A DNA stretch of 64,000 nucleotides from Candidatus Bathyarchaeia archaeon (GTDB taxonomy: Archaea; Thermoproteota; Bathyarchaeia; Bathyarchaeales; Bathycorpusculaceae). Shown one piece after another: positions 4,816-15,360 of the stretch (its first letter is position 1; the number at the start of each line of letters is the position of its first letter). Under the pieces are notes generated by a model that worked only from the letters and a program-made list of their open reading frames with translations, did no database searches and had not been told where the DNA came from. The position numbers were made by a program, and so were the translations under genes. Location: contig JAVZLQ010000003.1 in NCBI GenBank assembly GCA_038883655.1, positions 183,099-247,098 of the forward strand, in the 5' to 3' direction.

Positions 4816-6756
4816 TTATTTTTCTTCCTTTTCAAGAAAGCCCGTCAAGAATATGGCGTATTCGCATGGATGCTCATTTTGAAGCAGAGATTTTATTATT
4901 TTTATTTTCCCTTTTTTGCCGTGACTAACCCTGGAAATAATGTATTCTAGTGTTTTCTTTCGAAGCCCGCATAGCCATGTTTTCTGGCTGGTTTTGACCA
5001 GTTTGTAGTAGGGACAGCTTTTATATTTTAGGGTAAAGCCGCCTTCAAAATATTCTATTTCAACCTCTATACCAAGTTCGCGGTACATATCAATGATTCT
5101 TTCACCAACATCTTTGATGGTCCACGGGTAGTCTTCTGGAAAAAGTGCATCCAACTGCTCTTTTTCAATGGCGAAAGCTTCTTCGATTGAGTTGCATGAC
5201 ATGCCTTCAATGAGTACTTGCATGAGCTTCTTACGAGGTAATGGCTCCAGAACTGGTTTTTCTAAAAGCTTCAGTTTAAAGCTTAGTAGGTTCTGGAATG
5301 TTGCTGTTGAAACTTCGTAGCCTAATTCCTTAAACATGGATTCTATTAGGATGCGTTGGCTGTTCATTACGAGGGGGTCTATCCGCTTAAAAATGATGGT
5401 GAAATGCTCGTCGTCAACAAACCTTACTTCAGCGTCGGACTGCGTCACACTAATGCTTTTGATGATAAAGTTTTTGGAAAGTCTACCAATTTTTTCCTGA
5501 TCTCCCCTGGCAAGCATGCGGATGGCGTTAGAGATGCGAATTCCTGTTGCGCGATATATTTCTTCAAATTTCTGTCTATCGCTTTCGTATACTTTTGCTG
5601 CGAAGGAGTTGAAGAGATCGCGGGGGATTGGAACAACGTCTAGGAATTGTTTTCCTATTATTTGAAAGAGGTTGAGTTCGGCTAGCTGGTCTAAAACACT
5701 TTGGTCTTCCGCACCCACATATTTTATTGTCATGTTCACGTTTGCATGTTCAATTGAATATTGTAAAAGTTTCCACCCACGTGTTGCCAAAATTATTGAA
5801 AATACGGTTACGGCTAGGCGGGCTATCTGGACGGTTGTGACTTGAAAAACTAGTTCTAGCATGTTTTCTTCTTTTTCTGTTAAAACTTTGACTTGCCTAA
5901 ACCAGTTCATTTTTATAAAGGCTGAAAGGATAGCTTTCACGAAGTCTTTTGGCTCTCTTGGAAATTCGCTGATGCCAAGAACAGTTCTAGCATCCTCTAT
6001 GAAGTTACCCAAGTCTGTTACTGGTTCTTCCAAATGTTTCTCAGCCCAGCTCATAAAGGCTGGTCCAACAAGCATCAGCGTGTTTTTAAATAACCCAGGA
6101 GTAACGTTTGCCAGTTCTTTTTCAATCTGCTGTTCTAGAAAATCGCCGAATTCTTTTCTCCTTAATGTGTAAATTTCGGGGCGAATCATCTTTATGACTA
6201 TGTCCTCGCCCATGATTCGTAAGTCAAAATTTACGCCTATGCCCTCCAATATCGTAGCAACTTGAAAGGCAACCATTACGGGTAAACGTTTGAAGACCTT
6301 AGGTCTTAGCACTGCTATGCTGTCGATTTCACTGTATGATGGAATGTCAAAAAGGTTTGTAAGCCCTTTTATCTCTTCTATGACCAGTAGAAACTCTTTA
6401 AAGGTCGATGGCACTTTCCATGCAACGGAACTTTTAAGTATCTCAATTATGTTCTTTGCCTCTGCTTTTTGTTCCCTAATTAGGTCTTCAATTGTTTTGT
6501 TTCCTAGGGCAACTTCTAGGAGGCTGTCAAGGCTCTTCCTACTAATTGATGTTAAGTCAAGCGCCTCTCTCAGTTTAGTTTGCTCATTAATTTTTGCTTT
6601 TATTGTGCAGTCTTCGCAAGAGCCAACTTTATCCACCCTAAGCAGAGTCTCTACAGCTTTCTCGAGAACGCGGCTTTTCGTGCCGTATGTTTTTGCTAGT
6701 TCTTCAAGCATCTCGTTTGTTTTTCTGGTTATTGTTGTGTGAAGATGCACGGACAT
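4816..6756 (-). CDS. Large orphan protein: ribbon-helix-helix-like N-terminus, V4R-like Cys-motif C-terminus (putative ligand-sensing regulator)
   Basis: A long uninterrupted ORF with an ATG start and a TTTAAAA box ~33 nt upstream. The N-terminus HLHTTITRKTNEMLEELAKTYGTKSRVLEKAVETLL fits the strand-helix-helix pattern of CopG/Arc/MetJ. The C-terminus KSCPYYKLV..WLCGLRKKTLEYI..NEHPCEYAIFL resembles the V4R pattern C-P-x-C...C-x-x-x-G...C-E-F. The middle ~500 aa is unrecognised. The CDS is solid but the function call is weak. Confidence 0.5.
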   Translation of the reverse strand: MSVHLHTTITRKTNEMLEELAKTYGTKSRVLEKAVETLLRVDKVGSCEDCTIKAKINEQTKLREALDLTSISRKSLDSLLEVALGNKTIEDLIREQKAEAKNIIEILKSSVAWKVPSTFKEFLLVIEEIKGLTNLFDIPSYSEIDSIAVLRPKVFKRLPVMVAFQVATILEGIGVNFDLRIMGEDIVIKMIRPEIYTLRRKEFGDFLEQQIEKELANVTPGLFKNTLMLVGPAFMSWAEKHLEEPVTDLGNFIEDARTVLGISEFPREPKDFVKAILSAFIKMNWFRQVKVLTEKEENMLELVFQVTTVQIARLAVTVFSIILATRGWKLLQYSIEHANVNMTIKYVGAEDQSVLDQLAELNLFQIIGKQFLDVVPIPRDLFNSFAAKVYESDRQKFEEIYRATGIRISNAIRMLARGDQEKIGRLSKNFIIKSISVTQSDAEVRFVDDEHFTIIFKRIDPLVMNSQRILIESMFKELGYEVSTATFQNLLSFKLKLLEKPVLEPLPRKKLMQVLIEGMSCNSIEEAFAIEKEQLDALFPEDYPWTIKDVGERIIDMYRELGIEVEIEYFEGGFTLKYKSCPYYKLVKTSQKTWLCGLRKKTLEYIISRVSHGKKGKIKIIKSLLQNEHPCEYAIFLTGFLEKEEK

Positions 6757-6797: not shown

Positions 6798-6853
6798 ATG
6801 TTCATAAAATGTATTAAATGTACATAAAGAAAGGGGGATGTTGACTTGTCAAC
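6798..6853. promoter_or_regulatory. ATGTNCAT-type motif array plus GTTGAC-TT-GTCAAC palindrome, upstream of the 646-aa gene and at the 3' end of the long GDH
   Basis: ATGTTCAT 6798-6805, ATGTATT 6809-6815, ATGTACAT 6818-6825, ATGTTGAC 6838-6845. Perfect 6+6 palindrome at 6840-6853. Start-to-start spacings are 11, 9 and 20 nt. The array abuts the TTTAAA box of the minus-strand gene. Confidence 0.35.
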
Positions 6854-8627
6854 GTGGCTTTAATGGTGGTACAATAGGGCTGAACGTTGCGCCCTTTCTG
6901 GCTACAAGCGCGTCTGCCACTCTTTTTACGGCCAACATGTAGGCTGCTGTGCGCATGTTCACATTGTACTGTTTTGAGATGTTGAGCACGTCGTAGAAAG
7001 CTTTGGTTATTGTTTCCTTCAGCTTATTCCTAACCTCTTCTTCAGTCCAGTAATAGTTCATTTGGTTTTGCACTTGTTCAAAGTAGCTAACGATTACTCC
7101 ACCGGAGTTGGCGAGAATATCTGGGATTACGAAAACGCCCTTTTTGAACAAAATTTCATCCGCCTCTGGAGTTGTCGGTCCATTAGCTCCTTCTGCAACG
7201 ATTTTAGCTTTTATGTTCGCCGCGTTTTCCTTTGTTATTTGGTTTTCTAATGCCGCTGGAACTAGGATGTCGCATTCCAATTCTAGCAATTGCTCATTTG
7301 TTATAAATGTACTGCCAGGATAGTCAACTACAGAACCAGTTTTCTCCTTGTGAATCAAAACTTTTTCTGGGTCTAAGCCTTCTGGGTTATAAGCGCCACC
7401 TTTTGAGTCTGAAACTGCAATGATTTTGCATCCGATTTCATGTAGTAGGCGCGCCGCATGATAGCCTACATTCCCATAGCCTTGAACCGCAACTGTTGCA
7501 CCTTTGAGGTTTACTCCAAGATGTTTGGCCGCCTCGATGACAGTGTACATCAGCCCCCTTGATGTAGCCTCGCTTCTTCCACGAGAACCGCCCACGTGAA
7601 TGGGTTTTCCCGTTACCACACCGAAGACGGGATAGCCAACTATTTCGCTGTACTCGTCCATTATCCACGCCATCATTTCCGTAGTTGTGTACACGTCTGG
7701 CGCTGGCACATCTGTGAAAGGTCCTATGAACTTCGCTATAGCGCGCACATAGCCTCTTGTCAGGCGCTCAAGCTCAGCCTTTGACATCTCTTTTGGATTG
7801 CACCTAATCCCGCCCTTACCTCCTCCGAGAGGTAAACCCGTTACTGCTGTTTTCCATGTCATCCAAGCGGCTAGGGCTGTAACTTCGTCTAGAGTTAGGT
7901 CTGGATGATATCTTATGCCGCCCTTTGTTGGACCCAAAGCGTCATTGTATTGCACGCGGTATCCGGTGAAAACTTGGATGCTGCCGTCATCCATGACAAC
8001 TGGAATGTTAACGATAAGTGTTCGCATTGGACGCTTCAATATTTCGTGTATGCCTGGGTCTAGGTTCAGTTTTTCGGCAGCCACGTCTAGCTGTTTAAGG
8101 GCGGCTTCGTAAGGGTTTGGCGCGACTGCAATGGGCGCTAACGTATCTACTTTGACAAAAACAGCTGTTTGGAGTTTCTCAATTAGGTTCTTGAGGGTTT
8201 CCTTCGCTACTTCGCCGTTGCCTTCACTGTTTCCATAAAACCATAAGTACGTCTCAATAAGCGCATCCTCCTTCTTAGTAAGGAACGCGCCAGCAGGAGC
8301 CATTTTTGGACTCTCAGAGAAATAGTCAGTGAGAACACGTAACATGTTAAGTTCGTCGCGTGTTAGGGGCAAAAGCTTCTTTATAGGCTCTGGCGCCTTC
8401 ACGTGGACATACTCAGCGTCCATCAGCTTCTTTTGCAATTCTTCAAAGGTTTTTAGAGAATCTTCTATTGGTATGCCGAAGTTTTCAGAGTATGTTGTCA
8501 ACAAGGCATAGTGGGCTGTTGTGTAGCTTTCTATTTTCGCCGTTAACTCCGGTTTCTCGGCGAAGAAGTCCACCATTAGCTTAAGCATTCCTAATTCACG
8601 AGCCGAAAGTTCTACCGAGTTCAACAT
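6849..8627 (-). CDS. gdh: Glutamate dehydrogenase with a ~170-aa N-terminal tandem-repeat extension
   Basis: The core starts at NPYEAALKQLDVAAEKLNLDPG and carries GPTKGGIRYHP, LPLGGGKGGIRCNP and GATVAVQGYGNVG (Rossmann). The likely start is ATG 8627, preceded by GAGGTG. The ORF track starts at TTG 8654. Confidence 0.85.
   Translation of the reverse strand: MLNSVELSARELGMLKLMVDFFAEKPELTAKIESYTTAHYALLTTYSENFGIPIEDSLKTFEELQKKLMDAEYVHVKAPEPIKKLLPLTRDELNMLRVLTDYFSESPKMAPAGAFLTKKEDALIETYLWFYGNSEGNGEVAKETLKNLIEKLQTAVFVKVDTLAPIAVAPNPYEAALKQLDVAAEKLNLDPGIHEILKRPMRTLIVNIPVVMDDGSIQVFTGYRVQYNDALGPTKGGIRYHPDLTLDEVTALAAWMTWKTAVTGLPLGGGKGGIRCNPKEMSKAELERLTRGYVRAIAKFIGPFTDVPAPDVYTTTEMMAWIMDEYSEIVGYPVFGVVTGKPIHVGGSRGRSEATSRGLMYTVIEAAKHLGVNLKGATVAVQGYGNVGYHAARLLHEIGCKIIAVSDSKGGAYNPEGLDPEKVLIHKEKTGSVVDYPGSTFITNEQLLELECDILVPAALENQITKENAANIKAKIVAEGANGPTTPEADEILFKKGVFVIPDILANSGGVIVSYFEQVQNQMNYYWTEEEVRNKLKETITKAFYDVLNISKQYNVNMRTAAYMLAVKRVADALVARKGATFSPIVPPLKPR
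8121..8627 (-). repeat. Tandem duplicated ~85-aa domain encoded at the 5' end of the long GDH
   Basis: Unit 1 is ELSARELGMLKLMVDFFAEKPEL...LLTTYSENFG...SLKTFEELQKKLMDAEYVHVKAPEP. Unit 2 is PLTRDELNMLRVLTDYFSESPKM...LIETYLWFYG...AKETLKNLIEKLQTAVFVKVDTLAP. They are colinear over the whole length. Confidence 0.7.
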
Positions 8628-8659
8628 CTTTTTCACACCTCTGAAGACTAACAAAAGTG

Positions 8660-8707
8660 ATGTTCAACTATAGAAATATTATGTCCATCATGTACATATG
8701 TGTACAA
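8660..8707. promoter_or_regulatory. ATGTNCAT-type motif array in the divergent region between the long GDH and the KaiC-like gene
   Basis: ATGTTCAA 8660-8667, ATGTCCAT 8681-8688, ATGTACAT 8690-8697, ATGTGTACAA 8698-8707. TGTACA recurs at 8691-8696 and 8701-8706, 10 nt apart. Confidence 0.35.
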
Positions 8708-8783: not shown

Positions 8784-9527
8784 TTGGCAATTAAAAATCA
8801 AGCACTCTATTCAACTGGGATAAAAAGCTTAGATAGACTCCTCGAAGGTGGCTTATTTCTAGGAGAAAATGTTTTATGGGAAGTTGAATCAGGAACCTTC
8901 GCAAGAGAATTTCTTTATTCGTTTATGCGCCAAGGACTATTAGAAGGAAAGCAAGTAATTTACCTAGATTTCATATATCCTCCACAAGCACTTATGATAC
9001 AACTTGAGCCATTAACAAAATCACTTCCAGATGGATGGGAAAAGAAACTTTTAGTATTAGACTGCTTTTCAGAAGCAGCCGGACAAGGCGAACTCATATT
9101 CAGCGACTTTTACGACAAAGCACCACCATGGATTAGAAAAGTTCCAAGCTCCAAAGACCCGGAACGCTTTCACCACTTTTTCGGAAGAATTGAAAGAGAA
9201 TTTGTAACTCCGGGAACAAGACTTGTTTTCAATAGTTTGTCGATTATGGAACACAATTGGGGGAGAGACGCCGTCAAGGCATTTTTCGGACATGTTTGCC
9301 CCGCACTATATGCTTATCAAACTCTCGCTTACTGGACAATGGCGAAGAACGCACATCCCAAAGAGTTTTGCGCAATAATCGAGCACATGACGCAAGTAGT
9401 TATTGACCTTTCAAGACAAGGTGAAAAAAACTTTTTTCAGATAAAAAAAGCTGGCGGAAGATATAATCCGCAAACATATCAGCGGCGAGAGTACACTGTC
9501 AAGGGCTTGCAGATAGACATTTTTTGA
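8784..9527 (+). CDS. KaiC/RecA-superfamily single-domain protein with degenerate Walker A (predicted pseudo-ATPase)
   Basis: STGIKSLDRLLEGGLFLGENVLW matches the KaiC/RadA-like N-terminal pattern (tGi.gLD.lLgGG...G). Where GxxGxGKT is expected the sequence reads VESGTFAR, with no Lys-Thr/Ser. The Walker-B-like strand LLVLDCFS is retained. TTG start. Confidence 0.55.
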   Translation: MAIKNQALYSTGIKSLDRLLEGGLFLGENVLWEVESGTFAREFLYSFMRQGLLEGKQVIYLDFIYPPQALMIQLEPLTKSLPDGWEKKLLVLDCFSEAAGQGELIFSDFYDKAPPWIRKVPSSKDPERFHHFFGRIEREFVTPGTRLVFNSLSIMEHNWGRDAVKAFFGHVCPALYAYQTLAYWTMAKNAHPKEFCAIIEHMTQVVIDLSRQGEKNFFQIKKAGGRYNPQTYQRREYTVKGLQIDIF

Positions 9528-9549: not shown

Positions 9550-9604
9550 ATGTACATTCATGTTCATTTTTCACTGTTTCTTAGGGTAATGTTTAAATGT
9601 TGAC
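9550..9604. promoter_or_regulatory. ATGTNCAT-type motif array upstream of the GltB-like gene
   Basis: ATGTACAT 9550-9557, ATGTTCAT 9560-9567 (10-nt spacing), ATGTTTAA 9589-9596, ATGTTGAC 9597-9604. The last octamer is the same as at 6838-6845. Confidence 0.35.
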
Positions 9605-9654
9605 TAAAATTAACCCCTTCATGCCGAAATTTACAAATGTAAAAGGTGAAAGAG

Positions 9655-11262
9655 ATGACTGAACGTGTATTTAGAAACAGTTCTTATCTGAACGGAAAAT
9701 CAACAACCGGAACAACCACACGAGTCAAAGACACAAGCCCAACAAGCGGGATGTGCCCAATATGCATCCGCGACTGTCCAATAATGTGTGAAATTGGACT
9801 TTCAGCCTTCAGAGGAAGAGAAGCCCTATATCCAGAGCCAGTACAATTCGGATACAGCACAGCAGGTGCCCTCAAAGACTTTGGACTGGACTGGTCGCAC
9901 TTCAACATACAAGCTGGACTTTTTGAAGCGTTAGGGATAGAGGAAAATCCTGACGTTGCACTGTTTCCAAACGCAAGCACAGAAACCGTTGTTGCTGGCA
10001 TACCCCTAAAAATACCAGTACTATGTGGCGCTTTCGGCTCAACAGACGTTGCAAGACTGAATTGGGAAGGATTAGCCATAGGCACAGCATTATCAGGCGC
10101 CATAATAATAATCGGAGAAAACGTCTGCGGCATGGACCCAGAAGCACAATTTATAAATGGCAAAGTAACTTACTCGAAAGAATTAAAACGCAGAGTAGAC
10201 TTGTTCAGGAAATTCTGGGACGGAAAATACGGAGACATAGCCGTCCAAACAAACGTTGAAGACCAACGTTTGGGAGTTGACGTCTACGCCATCTCAAAAC
10301 TGGAAGTCAACATCATAGAGAGAAAGTGGGGACAAGGAGCAAAAGCAATCGGAGGCGAAGTCCGCGTAAGAGACTTGCAAAGGGCGATAATGCTAAAGAA
10401 AAGAGGATACATAGTAATTCCAGACCCAGAGGACCCAACAGTACAACAAGCATTCAAAGAAGGAGTCTTCAAATCCTTTGAAAGGCACAGCCGCGTTGGA
10501 ATACCGAAAGAAAAGAACGTGATAGAGGATATAGAATGGCTGCGCGAGCAAGGCGCGAAACACGTGACGCTCAAAACTGGCGCTTACAGACCATCAGCCG
10601 TGGCATACACCCTAAAAATAGCCTCAGAAGCAAAAATTGATGCAGTATACTTTGACGGTGCTGGTGGCGGAACTGGAATGAGCCCTGTTCCAATGATGGA
10701 CGAGATGAGCATACCAACCGTTTACCTAGAAGCGATAGTTCTAAAGTGTGCACAACTGCTGAAAAAGAAGGGCAGATACGTTCCAGACTTGATTATGGCT
10801 GGAGGTTTCATAAACGAAACGCAAATTTTCAAGGCAATAGCCATGAGTAACTTCGGAGACGGGCCATTCGTTAAGGCTGTTCTAATGGGACGCTCACCGT
10901 TAACTGCCGTGATGAAGGCAAACTACTTCAAACAGTTGGCTGAAGAGGGCAAATTGCCGAAAGCTTTCGCAGACAGATTTGGCAACACTCCGGACAAATT
11001 CTTCATCGCAGCGCCAGAGCTGAAAGAAAAGTATGGTGAGCGCTTCAAGGAAATTCCATGGGAAGCAGTTGCGCTTTACACTTACTTGACGGATCGCATA
11101 GGCGTAGGCCTAAAACAACTCTTAGCTGGAAACAGAAAATGGAGGCTGGAGTTAATAAACAGAAATGACCTTATGAGTCTATCAGAAATTGCCGCAAAGG
11201 TAACAGGCATACCGCTACCGCACGAGATTGAAGCAGACGCCATTGAAAGGATATTAGACTAA
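9655..11262 (+). CDS. FMN-dependent glutamate synthase-related protein (GltB domain-2 family, divergent)
   Basis: KWGQGAKAIGGE, FDGAGGGTGMSP and LIMAGGF match the GltS FMN-domain pattern (QGAKPG.GG, G.eGGTGA). N-terminal Cys cluster CPICIRDCPIMC. ATG 9655 follows AGGTGA. The ORF track starts at GTG 9646. Confidence 0.65.
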   Translation: MTERVFRNSSYLNGKSTTGTTTRVKDTSPTSGMCPICIRDCPIMCEIGLSAFRGREALYPEPVQFGYSTAGALKDFGLDWSHFNIQAGLFEALGIEENPDVALFPNASTETVVAGIPLKIPVLCGAFGSTDVARLNWEGLAIGTALSGAIIIIGENVCGMDPEAQFINGKVTYSKELKRRVDLFRKFWDGKYGDIAVQTNVEDQRLGVDVYAISKLEVNIIERKWGQGAKAIGGEVRVRDLQRAIMLKKRGYIVIPDPEDPTVQQAFKEGVFKSFERHSRVGIPKEKNVIEDIEWLREQGAKHVTLKTGAYRPSAVAYTLKIASEAKIDAVYFDGAGGGTGMSPVPMMDEMSIPTVYLEAIVLKCAQLLKKKGRYVPDLIMAGGFINETQIFKAIAMSNFGDGPFVKAVLMGRSPLTAVMKANYFKQLAEEGKLPKAFADRFGNTPDKFFIAAPELKEKYGERFKEIPWEAVALYTYLTDRIGVGLKQLLAGNRKWRLELINRNDLMSLSEIAAKVTGIPLPHEIEADAIERILD

Positions 11263-11332: not shown

Positions 11333-12601
11333 ATGGATGAAGTGGAGAATATGAAAGAACAGCAAACAGCACTTGACGTGGCTCTGGAACAGTTAGAAAT
11401 AGCCGCTGAAAAACTGAACCTAGACCCTGGACTACACGAGATGCTGAAACATCCTAAAAGATCGCTAATTGTTTCCATCACAATAAAAATGGATGATGGA
11501 AACATACGAACATTCAAGGGATGCCGCGTTCAACACTGGGACGCACGCGGACCATTTAAAGGCGGCATACGCTACCACCCGAACGTAACGCTGGAGGAAG
11601 TAACAGCACTTGCCATGTGGATGACCTGGAAATGCGCAGTCGTAGACATTCCATATGGAGGCGCGAAGGGCGGGATATGTTGTAACCCGAAGGAAATGTC
11701 AAAAACTGAGCTTGAAAGACTTACAAGAAGATACACGAGCTTAATTCTTGACTATATCGGACCCTATCGTGATGTACCAGCGCCAGACGTGTATACAGAC
11801 GCACAAACAATGGCGTGGATAATGGACACATACAGCCAATTTAAAGGTTACAGCGTACCAGAATGCGTCACTGGAAAACCAATAAGCGTAGGTGGTTCTG
11901 AGGGAAGAGAAGAAGCCACTTCAAGGGGGGTCGTAATCTGCGCAAGGGAAGCGGCAAAACGTTTAGGCTTAAGATTCAAGGGCGCAACAGTTGCGGTTCA
12001 AGGCTACGGAAACGTCGGGTGGAACGCAGCGAAAATCGCACATGACATGGGATGCAAAATCATTGCGGTTAGCGATTCCGCTGGAGGAATCTATTGTCCA
12101 GACGGTTTAAACCCACGCAAAGTTTACGAACATAAGGCAAAAACTGGCTCAGTAATTAACTATCCAAAATGTAAGAACATATCAAACGAGGAACTGCTTG
12201 AAACAAAATGTGATATCTTAATTCCAGCAGCGCTTGAAAATCAAATAACAAAAGCCAACGCAAACAAGGTAAAAGCAAAAATAATAGTTGAAGGCGCAAA
12301 TGGACCCACAACCCCAGACGCAGACAAAATACTTCAAGAAAAAGGAGTCTTCCTAATCCCAGACATATTGGCAAACGCTGGCGGCGTAACAGCAAGCTAT
12401 TTCGAGTGGGTTCAAAATCTAACAAGAGAACACTGGACACTAGAAGAAGTGAACAGAAAACTCGAAAACATCATGGTGAAGGCATTCAATGACGTTTACA
12501 ACCTAGTGGAAAAAGAAAAAGAGAGCATGCGCACAGCAGCGTTAATGCTCGGCGTCGGAAGAGTAAGCGATGCGATAAAAACGTTAGGGCTATGGCCATA
12601 A
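11333..12601 (+). CDS. gdhA: Glutamate dehydrogenase (canonical length)
   Basis: 422 aa with GPFKGGIRYHP, PYGGAKGGICCNP and GATVAVQGYGNVG. By eye it is about two-thirds identical to the catalytic core of the long GDH. Confidence 0.92.
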   Translation: MDEVENMKEQQTALDVALEQLEIAAEKLNLDPGLHEMLKHPKRSLIVSITIKMDDGNIRTFKGCRVQHWDARGPFKGGIRYHPNVTLEEVTALAMWMTWKCAVVDIPYGGAKGGICCNPKEMSKTELERLTRRYTSLILDYIGPYRDVPAPDVYTDAQTMAWIMDTYSQFKGYSVPECVTGKPISVGGSEGREEATSRGVVICAREAAKRLGLRFKGATVAVQGYGNVGWNAAKIAHDMGCKIIAVSDSAGGIYCPDGLNPRKVYEHKAKTGSVINYPKCKNISNEELLETKCDILIPAALENQITKANANKVKAKIIVEGANGPTTPDADKILQEKGVFLIPDILANAGGVTASYFEWVQNLTREHWTLEEVNRKLENIMVKAFNDVYNLVEKEKESMRTAALMLGVGRVSDAIKTLGLWP

Positions 12602-12739: not shown

Positions 12740-13315
12740 ATGCAAGAAAAATCTTTGCCGAACATTAAAACCTTAGATTTCGAATTTGAAAATCTACCAG
12801 TAAAGGTCATTGCAAACAGGAATTGCCCCGAAATCAAGCTTGTTGGGCTGAATGTTGGACCTTTCGAAGAAGGAAACGTGTATGAAGCCCCGTTTTGGGT
12901 TGCAAAGGAACTGGAAAAGGCGGGAATTGTCCGCTTTCGTGAAGAAGAACTTTTGGATTCAAGAAGGATTTACAAGATTCAGTGGATGGAACGTGTCCAA
13001 ACGCCAAGCCAAATATCGAAGCTTCCAGAGAATTTTTACCCAAAACTGCGCAGGTATTTAGTGGAGCTAAAGAAGGTCTCAGCAAAATCTCCAGAAAAGA
13101 TGAGGGAGTACGAAAAAAGTATGCAAGTGGTACGCGACATGATTAATGCGCGTCTAAAAAAGATTGTTGCGCTGGCAACTGCAAATTTTGGACAAACTGA
13201 GCAGATTTTGAAGAACCTCACATTCGAGGAAAGGCTAATTTATGAACGTTTGCGCAAACTTATTCACGGTTGGAAAGCCAAAATACTGGAGCATGAAGAG
13301 GGGCTGGAAGAATGA
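12740..13315 (+). CDS. gins23: GINS subunit, Gins23-type
   Basis: 191 aa. A small beta-rich N-terminal part (GPFEEGNVYEAPFWVAKELEKAGIVRF) precedes a helical C-terminal part. Its stop overlaps the MCM start (13312-13315). Gins23 upstream of mcm is the arrangement reported for Sulfolobus. Confidence 0.6.
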   Translation: MQEKSLPNIKTLDFEFENLPVKVIANRNCPEIKLVGLNVGPFEEGNVYEAPFWVAKELEKAGIVRFREEELLDSRRIYKIQWMERVQTPSQISKLPENFYPKLRRYLVELKKVSAKSPEKMREYEKSMQVVRDMINARLKKIVALATANFGQTEQILKNLTFEERLIYERLRKLIHGWKAKILEHEEGLEE

Positions 13316-15360
13316 CTGGAGAGTTAGAAGTTATAAATCCTCAAGAGCAGTTCCAAGAATTCTTTAAAACAGAAAAGTACAGACAAAAAATTGCGCAGTT
13401 GGCTGTTGCAGGCAAAACATCACTAATAGTAGATTTTGAAGACCTCCTAATCTTCGACAACAAACTTGCAGAAAAACTACTTGAAAAACCAGACGAGTAC
13501 TTACAATATGCTAATAACGCGGCTTATTCGCAACTTGAAAGTGAAGATCCAGAATACGCCGAAAGGCTCGTAAGCAAACGGGAAACATTAACGGTCAGAA
13601 TCGCTAAGCTGTTAGAAGCAACGCCGCTAAGAAAACTTGGTTCAGACCACATTGGAAAACTTGTGATGATAGAGGGCATCGTAGTACGCTCAACACCAGT
13701 ACGCCCAATGGTTATACGGGCAGCATTCAAATGCAGAAGATGTGGAGAACTATCATTCGAGGATCAAACAGGACAATTCCTAAAAGCACCATTCAAATGC
13801 AGAAACTCAGAATGCGGAGCAAAGGGTCCATTCGACTTCATTCAAGAAGAATCTGCATTCATAGACTCACAAGAACTACGCGTCCAAGAAAGACCAGAAG
13901 ACCTTCCACCAGGTCAGCTTCCAAGAACCTTGCACATTAAGCTTGTCGGGGCAGAAATAGTTGATGTTGCAAGACCTGGAGACCACGTTTCCATCGTTGG
14001 CATAGTTCGTGTTGTTGCTCCCTCACTCCCAAGAGTTGGAAAGCTTCGCACTTTCAGACTTCATTTGGATGCAAATTCTATAGAAGTTTTAGGTAAAGAG
14101 CCTGAAACGGCGCTTCCATCACCAGAAGAAGAGGAAAAAATCTTGGAGCTGGCAAAGGATCCATGGATACATAGGAAGATAATAAATTCAATTGCACCTT
14201 CAATCTATGGTTACGACCACATAAAAGAAGCGATAATGTACCTTCTCTTCGGCGGAGTCCCAAAAAATCTTCCAGACATAACGATAAGGGGCGAAATAAA
14301 CGCCCTTCTAATAGGCGACCCAGGAACAGCCAAATCGCAACTGCTACAGTACGTGGCAAGAGTTGCACCTAGAGGATTATATACTTCTGGACGCGGAACA
14401 ACAGCAGCTGGCTTAACAGCAGCAGTAATACGCGAAAAAGGCGGAGGAATGAGTCTTGAGGCTGGTGCTTTGGTTTTGGCTGATAAGGGAATTGCGTGTA
14501 TTGACGAGATGGATAAGATGCGTCCAGAAGATAGAGTTGCAATTCACGAGGCAATGGAACAGCACACGGTTTCAGTTGCGAAAGGGGGTATTGTGGCAAC
14601 GCTAAACGCTAGAACAGCCATTCTTGCGGCTGCAAACCCCACTTTAGGAAGGTATGTGCCACATCGCACAGTTGCTGAAAACATCTCCTTGCCAGTTACG
14701 ATACTCTCCAGATTTGATTTAATCTTCATTTTGAGGGATGTGCCAAACAAAGAAATGGACAGCAAAATGTCAGAGCACATCCTAGAAATGCACAGAAAAG
14801 GTTCAAGTCCCACCGAACCACCAATACCATTAGATTTGCTACGCAAATACATAAGCTACGCTAGAGGCATAAAGCCAGTTTTAACTAAAGAAGCATTACA
14901 GCGCCTCAGAGACTTCTATTTAGCAATGCGCTCAACAACAGAATCAGAAAGCTCGCCAGTCGCAATTACAGCCCGCCAACTTGAATCACTTGTGCGTATA
15001 GCAGAGGCAAGAGCCCGAGCAGCATTAAGAAAGGAAGTTCTGGCTGAAGACGCAGAAGCTGCAATTGCGATAATGAAACGTTCGCTTGAAGAGGTTGGCA
15101 TAGACGTTTCTTCATTCAAGCTTGACATAGACATAATAATGACTGGAAAACCAAAAAGTGCGAGGGACAAGCTGCAAGTGATAATTTCGAAGCTTATGGA
15201 GATGGAGAAAGAAACAGGAATCGTTGAAAGGGAAGCGCTTATAGATGAATTGGAAAGTAAATACAAGATTCCGCGAGCTGAAGCAGAACGCCTCATAGGG
15301 CAGTTGTTGCGAGAAGGAACAATATACGAGCCTAGAGAAGGTTATCTAAAGAAAACGTAG
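13312..15360 (+). CDS. mcm: MCM replicative helicase
   Basis: Zn motif CRRCG...CRNSECG, Walker A GDPGTAKS, Walker B CIDEMDKM and arginine finger SRFDLIF. 682 aa, with no intein-sized insertion. Confidence 0.95.
   Translation: MTGELEVINPQEQFQEFFKTEKYRQKIAQLAVAGKTSLIVDFEDLLIFDNKLAEKLLEKPDEYLQYANNAAYSQLESEDPEYAERLVSKRETLTVRIAKLLEATPLRKLGSDHIGKLVMIEGIVVRSTPVRPMVIRAAFKCRRCGELSFEDQTGQFLKAPFKCRNSECGAKGPFDFIQEESAFIDSQELRVQERPEDLPPGQLPRTLHIKLVGAEIVDVARPGDHVSIVGIVRVVAPSLPRVGKLRTFRLHLDANSIEVLGKEPETALPSPEEEEKILELAKDPWIHRKIINSIAPSIYGYDHIKEAIMYLLFGGVPKNLPDITIRGEINALLIGDPGTAKSQLLQYVARVAPRGLYTSGRGTTAAGLTAAVIREKGGGMSLEAGALVLADKGIACIDEMDKMRPEDRVAIHEAMEQHTVSVAKGGIVATLNARTAILAAANPTLGRYVPHRTVAENISLPVTILSRFDLIFILRDVPNKEMDSKMSEHILEMHRKGSSPTEPPIPLDLLRKYISYARGIKPVLTKEALQRLRDFYLAMRSTTESESSPVAITARQLESLVRIAEARARAALRKEVLAEDAEAAIAIMKRSLEEVGIDVSSFKLDIDIIMTGKPKSARDKLQVIISKLMEMEKETGIVEREALIDELESKYKIPRAEAERLIGQLLREGTIYEPREGYLKKT

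Follow-up and report, generated by a model that had tools for sequence, protein, structure and literature searches.

A tandem-duplicated orphan module precedes the catalytic core of a glutamate dehydrogenase in Bathyarchaeia

A 64,000-nucleotide stretch of a Candidatus Bathyarchaeia archaeon genome (contig JAVZLQ010000003.1, positions 183,099 to 247,098; hereafter the window) encodes a glutamate dehydrogenase (GDH) with about 170 additional residues at its N-terminus. This protein, which we call ext-GDH, is by its sequence a catalytically complete GDH core joined to a duplicated orphan module that is specific to Bathyarchaeia. It is a familiar enzyme to which one lineage has added an orphan accessory domain, and not a new class of system. 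We favour a reading in which the module serves docking or regulation as an accessory domain, most readily the docking of a protein partner, and neither takes part in catalysis nor binds DNA; we give this reading a probability of about 0.4.

Results

A duplicated extension on a standard GDH core

The extension consists of unit 1 (residues 1–84; 8376..8627, minus strand), which contains the most conserved stretch, FFAEKPELTAKIESYTTAHY, and unit 2 with a linker to the core that bears a conserved TLAP motif (residues 85–170; 8118..8375, minus strand). The two units aligned colinearly with 33% identity over 82 columns (BLASTP, E = 9e-9), and profiles built from 55 sequences each aligned over 76 columns with 97.7% probability (hhalign, E = 1.6e-12). 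E11, D20, F22, P26, G51 and L64 were invariant in both units in a joint alignment of several species. The module thus arose by internal duplication of a unit of ~85 aa. This bears out the first-pass annotation of this DNA, which had described a tandem-duplicated extension of ~170 aa on a GDH core of standard length and placed it at 8121–8627, corresponding to codons 1–169 of ext-GDH.

The core (residues 171–592; 6849..8117, minus strand) comprises the dimerisation and NAD(P)-binding domains, as identified by matches in Pfam, NCBIfam and the PDB. ELFV_dehydrog_N (PF02812, E = 2.8e-58) is followed by ELFV_dehydrog (PF00208, E = 5.2e-86), the order seen in small hexameric GDHs, and both matches are far above the gathering scores. 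The translation contains GPTKGGIRYH, WMTWKTAV, GGGKGG, GYGNVG and ANSGGV, all intact motifs of catalysis, substrate or cofactor binding, and column identity is 0.90–0.99 in the GPTKGGIRYH, GGGKGG, ANSGGV and GYGNVG blocks. Going by the structures of the C. symbiosum and P. furiosus enzymes, we take the lysine of GGGKGG to be catalytic, the lysine of KGG(I/V)R and the serine of AN(A/S)GGV to bind the γ-carboxylate of glutamate, and GxGxxG to belong to the dinucleotide fold. The top NCBIfam model was GdhA_Arch (NF040817) with 643.8 bits, under its equivalog cut-off of 750 bits; a second GDH of the window, GDH2, scored 576.9 bits against the same model.

The nearest solved structures are those of T. 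litoralis (1bvu, 8e-167), P. furiosus (1gtm, 1.2e-163) and T. profundus (1euz), and the matches of the core to Thermococcales GDHs among PDB sequences had E-values from 8e-167 to 1e-160. Given this strong match to hexameric enzymes, we infer that ext-GDH also forms a hexamer. The ~47-kDa Thermococcales subunits align end to end with residues 170–577 of ext-GDH and have the same domain order and motifs. However, they start 2–4 residues before the point at which the core begins and have no N-terminal domain (residue 3–5 of the PDB GDHs, which are 415–424 aa long, aligns with residue 170–172), whereas ext-GDH adds 170 residues. Small GDHs have subunits of ~410–450 aa without an N-terminal domain, and ext-GDH, at 592 aa, departs from this; the earlier statement that hexameric GDHs normally have no such appendage therefore holds for the solved ones. 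Clade-fixed substitutions, for example EQVQN for EWVQN, also distinguish ext-GDH from the Thermococcales GDHs.

GDH2 (11333–12601, plus strand; 422 aa) is 65% identical to the ext-GDH core and has no extension, as had been claimed for the neighbouring paralog; nor is there room for one, because the preceding gene ends at 11262. At thirty positions, one residue is fixed in ext-GDH cores and another in GDH2 orthologs; these positions include clusters at residues 335–337 and 518–526. In the latter (region 7050–7076, minus strand), which we take to be close to the insertion point of the animal GDH antenna, the near-universal SYFEWVQN reads SYFEQVQN in ext-GDH.

The extension is part of the gene

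The longest open reading frame (ORF) spans 6849..8654 (minus strand) and would encode 601 aa from a TTG codon. The ATG at 8627–8625 is the likely start: it is common to all ext-GDH orthologs, which share the N-terminus ML(N/S/T)xxELSxREL, and it lies 8 nt 3′ of a Shine–Dalgarno-like GAGGTG (8636..8641, minus strand). A motif of the GGAGG/GGTG type is found 5–10 nt upstream of the ATG in most of the orthologous loci. On the strength of the ORF list, this ATG with its Shine–Dalgarno-like motif and the in-frame orthologs, we place the complete coding sequence at 6849..8627 (minus strand; 592 aa and stop).

We considered whether the extension could be an annotation artefact, that is, a separate upstream gene or an untranslated leader, with GDH translation beginning near the core. 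Three loci (L001–L003) seem to speak for this, as there a separate extension ORF precedes a truncated GDH ORF, but the cause of the split is a deletion of 2 nt that all other sequences have, and the fusion is uninterrupted in about 55 other species-level genomes. Moreover, the next in-frame ATG of ext-GDH after M109 is that of M201, and where GDHs canonically begin (residue ~168) there is neither an ATG nor any other start codon; the promoter, the TATA-like element (both described below) and the Shine–Dalgarno-like motif all lie 5′ of the ATG of the extension. The ratio of nonsynonymous to synonymous substitution rates (dN/dS; Nei–Gojobori) was 0.01–0.10 in both units and 0.01–0.07 in the core. 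An internal start, which the first-pass annotation had named as a result that would overturn it, is therefore very unlikely, since no usable start codon lies near the core and the extension is conserved and selected like the core. The comparative data effectively refute the artefact, and by the same comparisons the extension is translated and strongly selected.

L001–L003 represent one population in three samples. The deletion follows directly after NPYEAAL (L001 4040–4170) and leaves an extension ORF of 185 aa and an N-terminally truncated GDH ORF of 381–392 aa; the remainder of the gene is intact, with 80% identity. The locus could represent a gene that recently became a pseudogene, or one that still functions in two parts. 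In L058 (8001–8565, an MFD assembly), the extension ORF breaks off after 135 aa, probably through a frameshift introduced by assembly error.

The module is conserved in Bathyarchaeia and resembles no known domain

Scanning one genome for each GTDB species recovered 63 extension loci, all labelled Bathyarchaeia or Bathyarchaeota except for one 3-kb contig that was binned elsewhere. Wherever the contig permits, extension and core form an in-frame fusion of 586–596 aa (about 55 species-level Bathyarchaeia genomes, with two frameshifted exceptions). Searching with the full-length protein yielded at least 120 clusters at 90% identity, which among the matches listed were 547–631 aa long and nearly all at least 575 aa. 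Every named cluster among these matches is annotated as GDH, and the domains recorded for the clusters listed are only PF02812 and PF00208, in some cases with PF02826, which also falls inside the core; 29% of the polypeptide is left unannotated in public records. When the extension alone was the query, a word-indexed search recovered nothing but fragments and thus under-counts the family, as the at least 120 full-length clusters demonstrate.

Among 55 distinct orthologs, mean column identity was 0.82 in unit 1, 0.71 in unit 2 and 0.85 in the core. Residues 21–40 of unit 1 reached 0.94, on par with the catalytic motifs, and contain a near-invariant polar and aromatic patch formed by K25, P26, E27, T29, E33, S34, Y35, T36, H39 and Y40. 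T162 and L163 of the linker were invariant in 30 diverse sequences. In a divergent subclade (L052–L054), the extension is retained with 58% identity.

No match to the extension was found in Pfam, either for residues 1–178 at E-values up to 0.1 or across 13 members at E-values up to 10, and no ACT or other domain was found in residues 1–170. NCBIfam gave no match, PADLOC nothing reproducible, and a sequence-profile search of the PDB nothing credible (the top match was an M13 peptidase, E = 0.022). When a profile of the extension was run exhaustively with HMMER against 1.84 billion representative proteins, 13 matches reached E ≤ 0.001. Twelve of these look like members or fragments of the family (six were inspected and three more were known from an earlier match list); the thirteenth, a TPR-repeat protein with an E-value of 6e-4, was judged spurious. 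Foldseek found no match with E < 0.3 when the two-unit model described below was compared with the PDB and BFVD and the unit-1 model with the PDB; the best E-values in the three runs were 0.3, 0.69 and 0.45, and template modelling (TM) scores normalised by query did not exceed 0.49.

Copies of the unit were not found by hhalign or hmmsearch in the neighbouring proteins described below (p646, the KaiC-like and the glutamate-synthase-like protein), in the GDH core, in the ORFs of the window or in 1137 ORFs of related loci. The only confirmed separate extension ORF is that of L001–L003, which is due to the deletion; the other short matches that we checked sit on short contigs and are taken to be contig-end fragments or chimeras. 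No description of an N-terminal extension on an archaeal or Bathyarchaeia GDH was found in the collection of papers searched. The earlier remark that the units contain no recognisable known domain thus stood in every library tried, and none assigned the repeats to a known GDH-associated domain. By these searches, the extension is an orphan domain, unannotated in public databases, that deserves definition as a new domain family.

Predicted fold of the two units

We modelled the 170-aa module with AlphaFold2 and the family alignment, and also modelled unit 1 alone. The two-unit model had a mean predicted local distance difference test score (pLDDT) of 75.9 and a predicted TM score (pTM) of 0.74. 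In this model, unit 1 has a strand (4–6), four helices (9–22, 26–33, 38–50 and 54–70) and a second strand (73–77), and unit 2 has a strand (85–87) and helices 90–102, 119–131 and 138–155; confidence is low in the loop 103–118 and in the linker 157–170. When unit 1 was modelled alone, the helices were kept and the strands were lost (pLDDT 81.2). Each unit is predicted to be a small four-helix bundle with short flanking strands. Because the strands form only when both units are modelled, and in view of the pTM, the models suggest that the two units pack into one compact, all-α, pseudo-dimeric body.

The module is acidic in all 55 orthologs, with an isoelectric point of 4.7–5.4 and a net charge of about −7 in the protein of the window, both of which are bulk measures and not a map of the surface. 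This bears on the idea that the units are degenerate helix-turn-helix (HTH) domains, either of the tetra-helical LuxR/GerE type or of the tandem winged-helix ScpB/MukE type, that bind the TGTWCA operators of the promoter described below, in the manner of PutA, which uses a bona fide ribbon-helix-helix (RHH) DNA-binding domain. LuxR/GerE and ScpB/MukE modules are indeed of similar size (~65–85 aa), have four helices and are paired, and the leading L(S/T)xxELxML of the ext-GDH units recalls LuxR-type helix 1. The weak Foldseek matches of unit 1 are rich in HTH proteins, among them DesR (66 columns, root mean square deviation 3.6, probability 0.57), the DNA-binding domain of EsrB (TM 0.63 normalised by target, 22% identity), Lrp/AsnC and sigma region 4. 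The two-unit list contains ScpB, MarR, MntR and RepE, one weak PADLOC match was to the MukE-like JetB (E = 0.007), and the operators in the promoter are conserved. However, none of the structural matches had an E-value below 0.3 or a query-normalised TM above 0.49, no HTH family of Pfam was matched even at E-values up to 10, and no comparison with LuxR/GerE or ScpB/MukE was significant. In addition, the module is acidic rather than basic in every species, which makes DNA binding unlikely, and p646, with its RHH-like N-terminus, is the more obvious operator binder. We therefore regard "HTH-like" as an unproven topological resemblance and direct DNA binding by the module as very improbable. A KITE-type tandem winged-helix (ScpB/MukE/JetB), raised by the weak ScpB and JetB matches, was rejected because JetB was matched by only 2 of 30 members.

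Conserved neighbours

The gene for p646 (4816..6756, minus strand; 646 aa) starts 92 nt after the ext-GDH stop codon. On the other side, a KaiC/PAXNEB(Elp4)-like protein with a RecA fold (8784..9527, plus strand; 247 aa) is encoded divergently and has a control region in common with ext-GDH. Nearly all loci with sufficient flanking sequence show the order KaiC-like gene, ext-GDH, p646, with a gap of about 90–100 nt between ext-GDH and p646, and the trio stays together even where GDH2 and the glutamate-synthase-like gene have relocated (L033, L043, L050, L062 and L063).

p646 matched Pfam weakly, with an RHH-like N-terminus (RHH_3, E = 0.019) and a MetOD1-like C-terminus (MetOD1 in 11 of 14 members, best E = 1.7e-4). 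Its mean column identity is 77%; Cys47 and Cys50 are invariant, as are Cys581, Cys596 and Cys631 in the MetOD1-like region. All of its 487 homologs carry a Bathyarchaeia organism label, and the 120 listed are unnamed or called "hypothetical protein"; no sequence relatives were found in the PDB. We consider p646 a candidate partner or regulator of ext-GDH. The KaiC-like protein matched PAXNEB (3.9e-9) and the KaiC-type ATPase family (3.4e-5) in Pfam and, weakly, KaiC_arch in NCBIfam. It is probably inactive as an ATPase, because its Walker A appears degenerate (ESGTFAREF at that position, with no GK[ST]).

The glutamate-synthase-like protein (9646–11262, plus strand; 538 aa), whose gene is co-located with ext-GDH and GDH2, matched PF01645 only in the flavin mononucleotide (FMN)-domain region (E = 9.8e-10), and NCBIfam gave no match. 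This archaeal GltB-like enzyme is poorly annotated and carries a cysteine motif, CPICIRDCPIMCE, at its N-terminus. Directly downstream of GDH2 are GINS (Sld5/Psf2-like) and MCM genes (12740–15360, plus strand), a linkage that is conserved in most related loci and speaks for the window being archaeal DNA.

This gene order also bears on a structural role, in which the module would cap the hexamer, build higher-order assemblies or mediate hetero-oligomers with GDH2. Such mixed enzymes exist: GdhA and GdhB of Thermus thermophilus form a hetero-hexamer. GDH2 lies within about 3 kb of ext-GDH in most loci, the predicted pseudo-dimer packing suggests that the ancestral unit self-associated, and the invariant TLAP linker motif suggests fixed packing and not a free tether. 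Against this, the extension is also found in loci without a nearby GDH2 (L052–L054 and the five in which it has moved away), and the conservation of surface-type polar residues goes beyond the needs of a spacer or cap. The hosts presumably include hot-spring, peat and soil metagenome-assembled genomes, as judged from record titles. This mix of thermophilic and mesophilic habitats argues against a purely thermostabilising role, so the module is not simply a stability device. We hold a structural or assembly role to be unlikely.

Operator-like blocks in two promoters

An alignment of upstream regions (64 distinct sequences) revealed a conserved promoter/operator-like block in the control region between ext-GDH and the KaiC-like gene (8661..8706, minus strand), about 45 nt 5′ of the ATG. 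It consists of four TGNACA hexamers (TGTACA 8706–8701, TGTACA 8696–8691, TGGACA 8687–8682 and TGAACA 8666–8661) with roughly 10-bp phasing around a TATA-like element, TTTCTATA (8676–8669), all on the minus strand, and the consensus reads TGTaCA-N4-TGTACAT-N-ATG-N-ACATAA-N3-TTTCTATA-N-TTGAACAT. A 25-nt pattern of the block is unique in the window, where 0.01 chance matches are expected. Nearly every locus in which ext-GDH is flanked by the KaiC-like gene and p646 has the block in conserved form; L052–L054 lack it.

A second TGTWCA pair, TGTACATTCATGTTCA (9551–9566, plus strand), followed by a TATA-like TTTAAAT (9592–9598, plus strand), lies upstream of the glutamate-synthase-like gene and GDH2. 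Its consensus, ATGTtCA-N3-ATGTTCA ... TTTAAAT, is conserved in 51 distinct regions upstream of the glutamate-synthase-like gene. The presence of TGTWCA pairs in both promoters suggests one regulator for both transcription units and hence a glutamate-metabolism regulon made up of ext-GDH and the glutamate-synthase-like/GDH2 operon.

Discussion

We favour docking of a protein partner as the function of the module because it combines an acidic surface with a near-invariant patch on unit 1, conserved synteny and operators held in common by the two transcription units. The first-pass annotation had suggested allosteric control, partner docking or altered oligomerisation for the extension; the present data reduce these options only slightly, through the acidic isoelectric point, the range of habitats and the conserved synteny, which indicates candidate partners. 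Six copies of the module would decorate the GDH hexamer, each presenting an acidic surface with the unit-1 patch. The patch would bind a protein partner and so may couple the activity or state of the enzyme to regulation of glutamate metabolism. The prime candidates for such a partner would be p646, encoded immediately downstream, and the divergently encoded KaiC-like protein.

Several points weigh against this reading. Homology of the extension to a characterised interaction domain was not detected in the sequence-profile, HMMER or Foldseek searches, and hhalign gave no profile similarity to p646, the KaiC-like or the glutamate-synthase-like protein. The AlphaFold2 models cover the extension as a monomer. 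L052–L054 keep the extension with neither p646 nor the KaiC-like gene nearby; their surroundings contain genes for an aldehyde:ferredoxin oxidoreductase (AOR), a 4Fe-4S ferredoxin, two divergent Lrp/AsnC regulators and ZnuABC (e.g. L053 3735–12704) and resemble an amino-acid-fermentation context. The candidate partner genes thus need not be adjacent, so that the assembly role considered above and a sensor role stay alive. A small-molecule-binding or self-assembly role fits the data about as well.

As a sensor, the helical module would bind a metabolite such as an amino acid, a nucleotide or a 2-oxoacid and signal to the core, with parallels in the animal GDH antenna and the ADP, GTP and leucine sites, or in the ACT-like domains of large GDHs. 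The polar and aromatic patch in residues 21–40 resembles what would be expected of a ligand pocket, the extension persists in L052–L054 where no candidate partner genes are nearby, and the clade-fixed EQVQN substitution cluster at 518–526 lies near the presumed antenna site. On the other hand, the module has no similarity to any known ligand-binding fold, for example ACT, PAS, GAF or CBS, and small all-α bundles are uncommon as metabolite sensors. A sensor role seems to us possible, if on the unlikely side.

The antenna is likewise a lineage-specific addition to a hexameric GDH and gives allosteric regulation in animals; however, it is an insertion of ~48 residues in the NAD domain, whereas the ext-GDH module is an N-terminal tandem with no sequence relationship to it. 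In the large GDHs (L-GDH180 and L-GDH115, e.g. the Mycobacterium smegmatis enzyme), the core is flanked by extra, presumably regulatory, N-terminal domains, with flanks of hundreds of residues that include ACT-like and other domains, and the enzymes are tetramers (PMC8175468). They form a different catalytic subfamily: ext-GDH scored 16.4 bits against PF05088 (Bac_GDH; cut-off 22.8), over residues 471–547 only, and its module is 170 aa long, all-α and of unrelated sequence, and sits on a core of the small type.

The docking arrangement would be functionally analogous to that of trigger enzymes such as B. subtilis RocG, which acts on GltC (PMC6794564). The analogy with RocG and PutA is conceptual only: in each, a dehydrogenase of glutamate or proline catabolism doubles as a transcriptional control of the matching biosynthetic or catabolic genes. 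ext-GDH adjoins a putative RHH regulator and has TGTWCA operators in common with the glutamate-synthase-like operon. RocG, however, has no extra domain, whereas that of ext-GDH is acidic and of no recognised DNA-binding fold, and its interaction with a partner is putative. In its most specific form, which we consider quite improbable, the extension would be the docking platform of an archaeal trigger enzyme that captures or releases p646, and possibly also the KaiC-like protein, according to glutamate/2-oxoglutarate status. The TGTWCA-operator regulon, that is, its own promoter and the glutamate-synthase-like/GDH2 operon, would then be switched. If so, an orphan fold would underlie a previously undescribed circuit from an enzyme to a transcription factor, in an archaeal class that is uncultured yet abundant worldwide.

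GDH ranks among the most thoroughly studied enzymes, and its regulation varies markedly by lineage, as the animal antenna, the flanks of large GDHs, the RocG/GltC pair and the Thermus hetero-hexamer illustrate. ext-GDH adds another solution, in which a conserved orphan module of two helical units is set on an otherwise textbook hexameric GDH in a large clade of Bathyarchaeia. These archaea are abundant in sediments, peat and hot springs, where they break down protein and organic matter anaerobically. Since conservation is as strong in the module as in the catalytic core, the module must matter for how they handle glutamate, and its conserved neighbours and operator motifs provide concrete hypotheses for the partner and the regulon.

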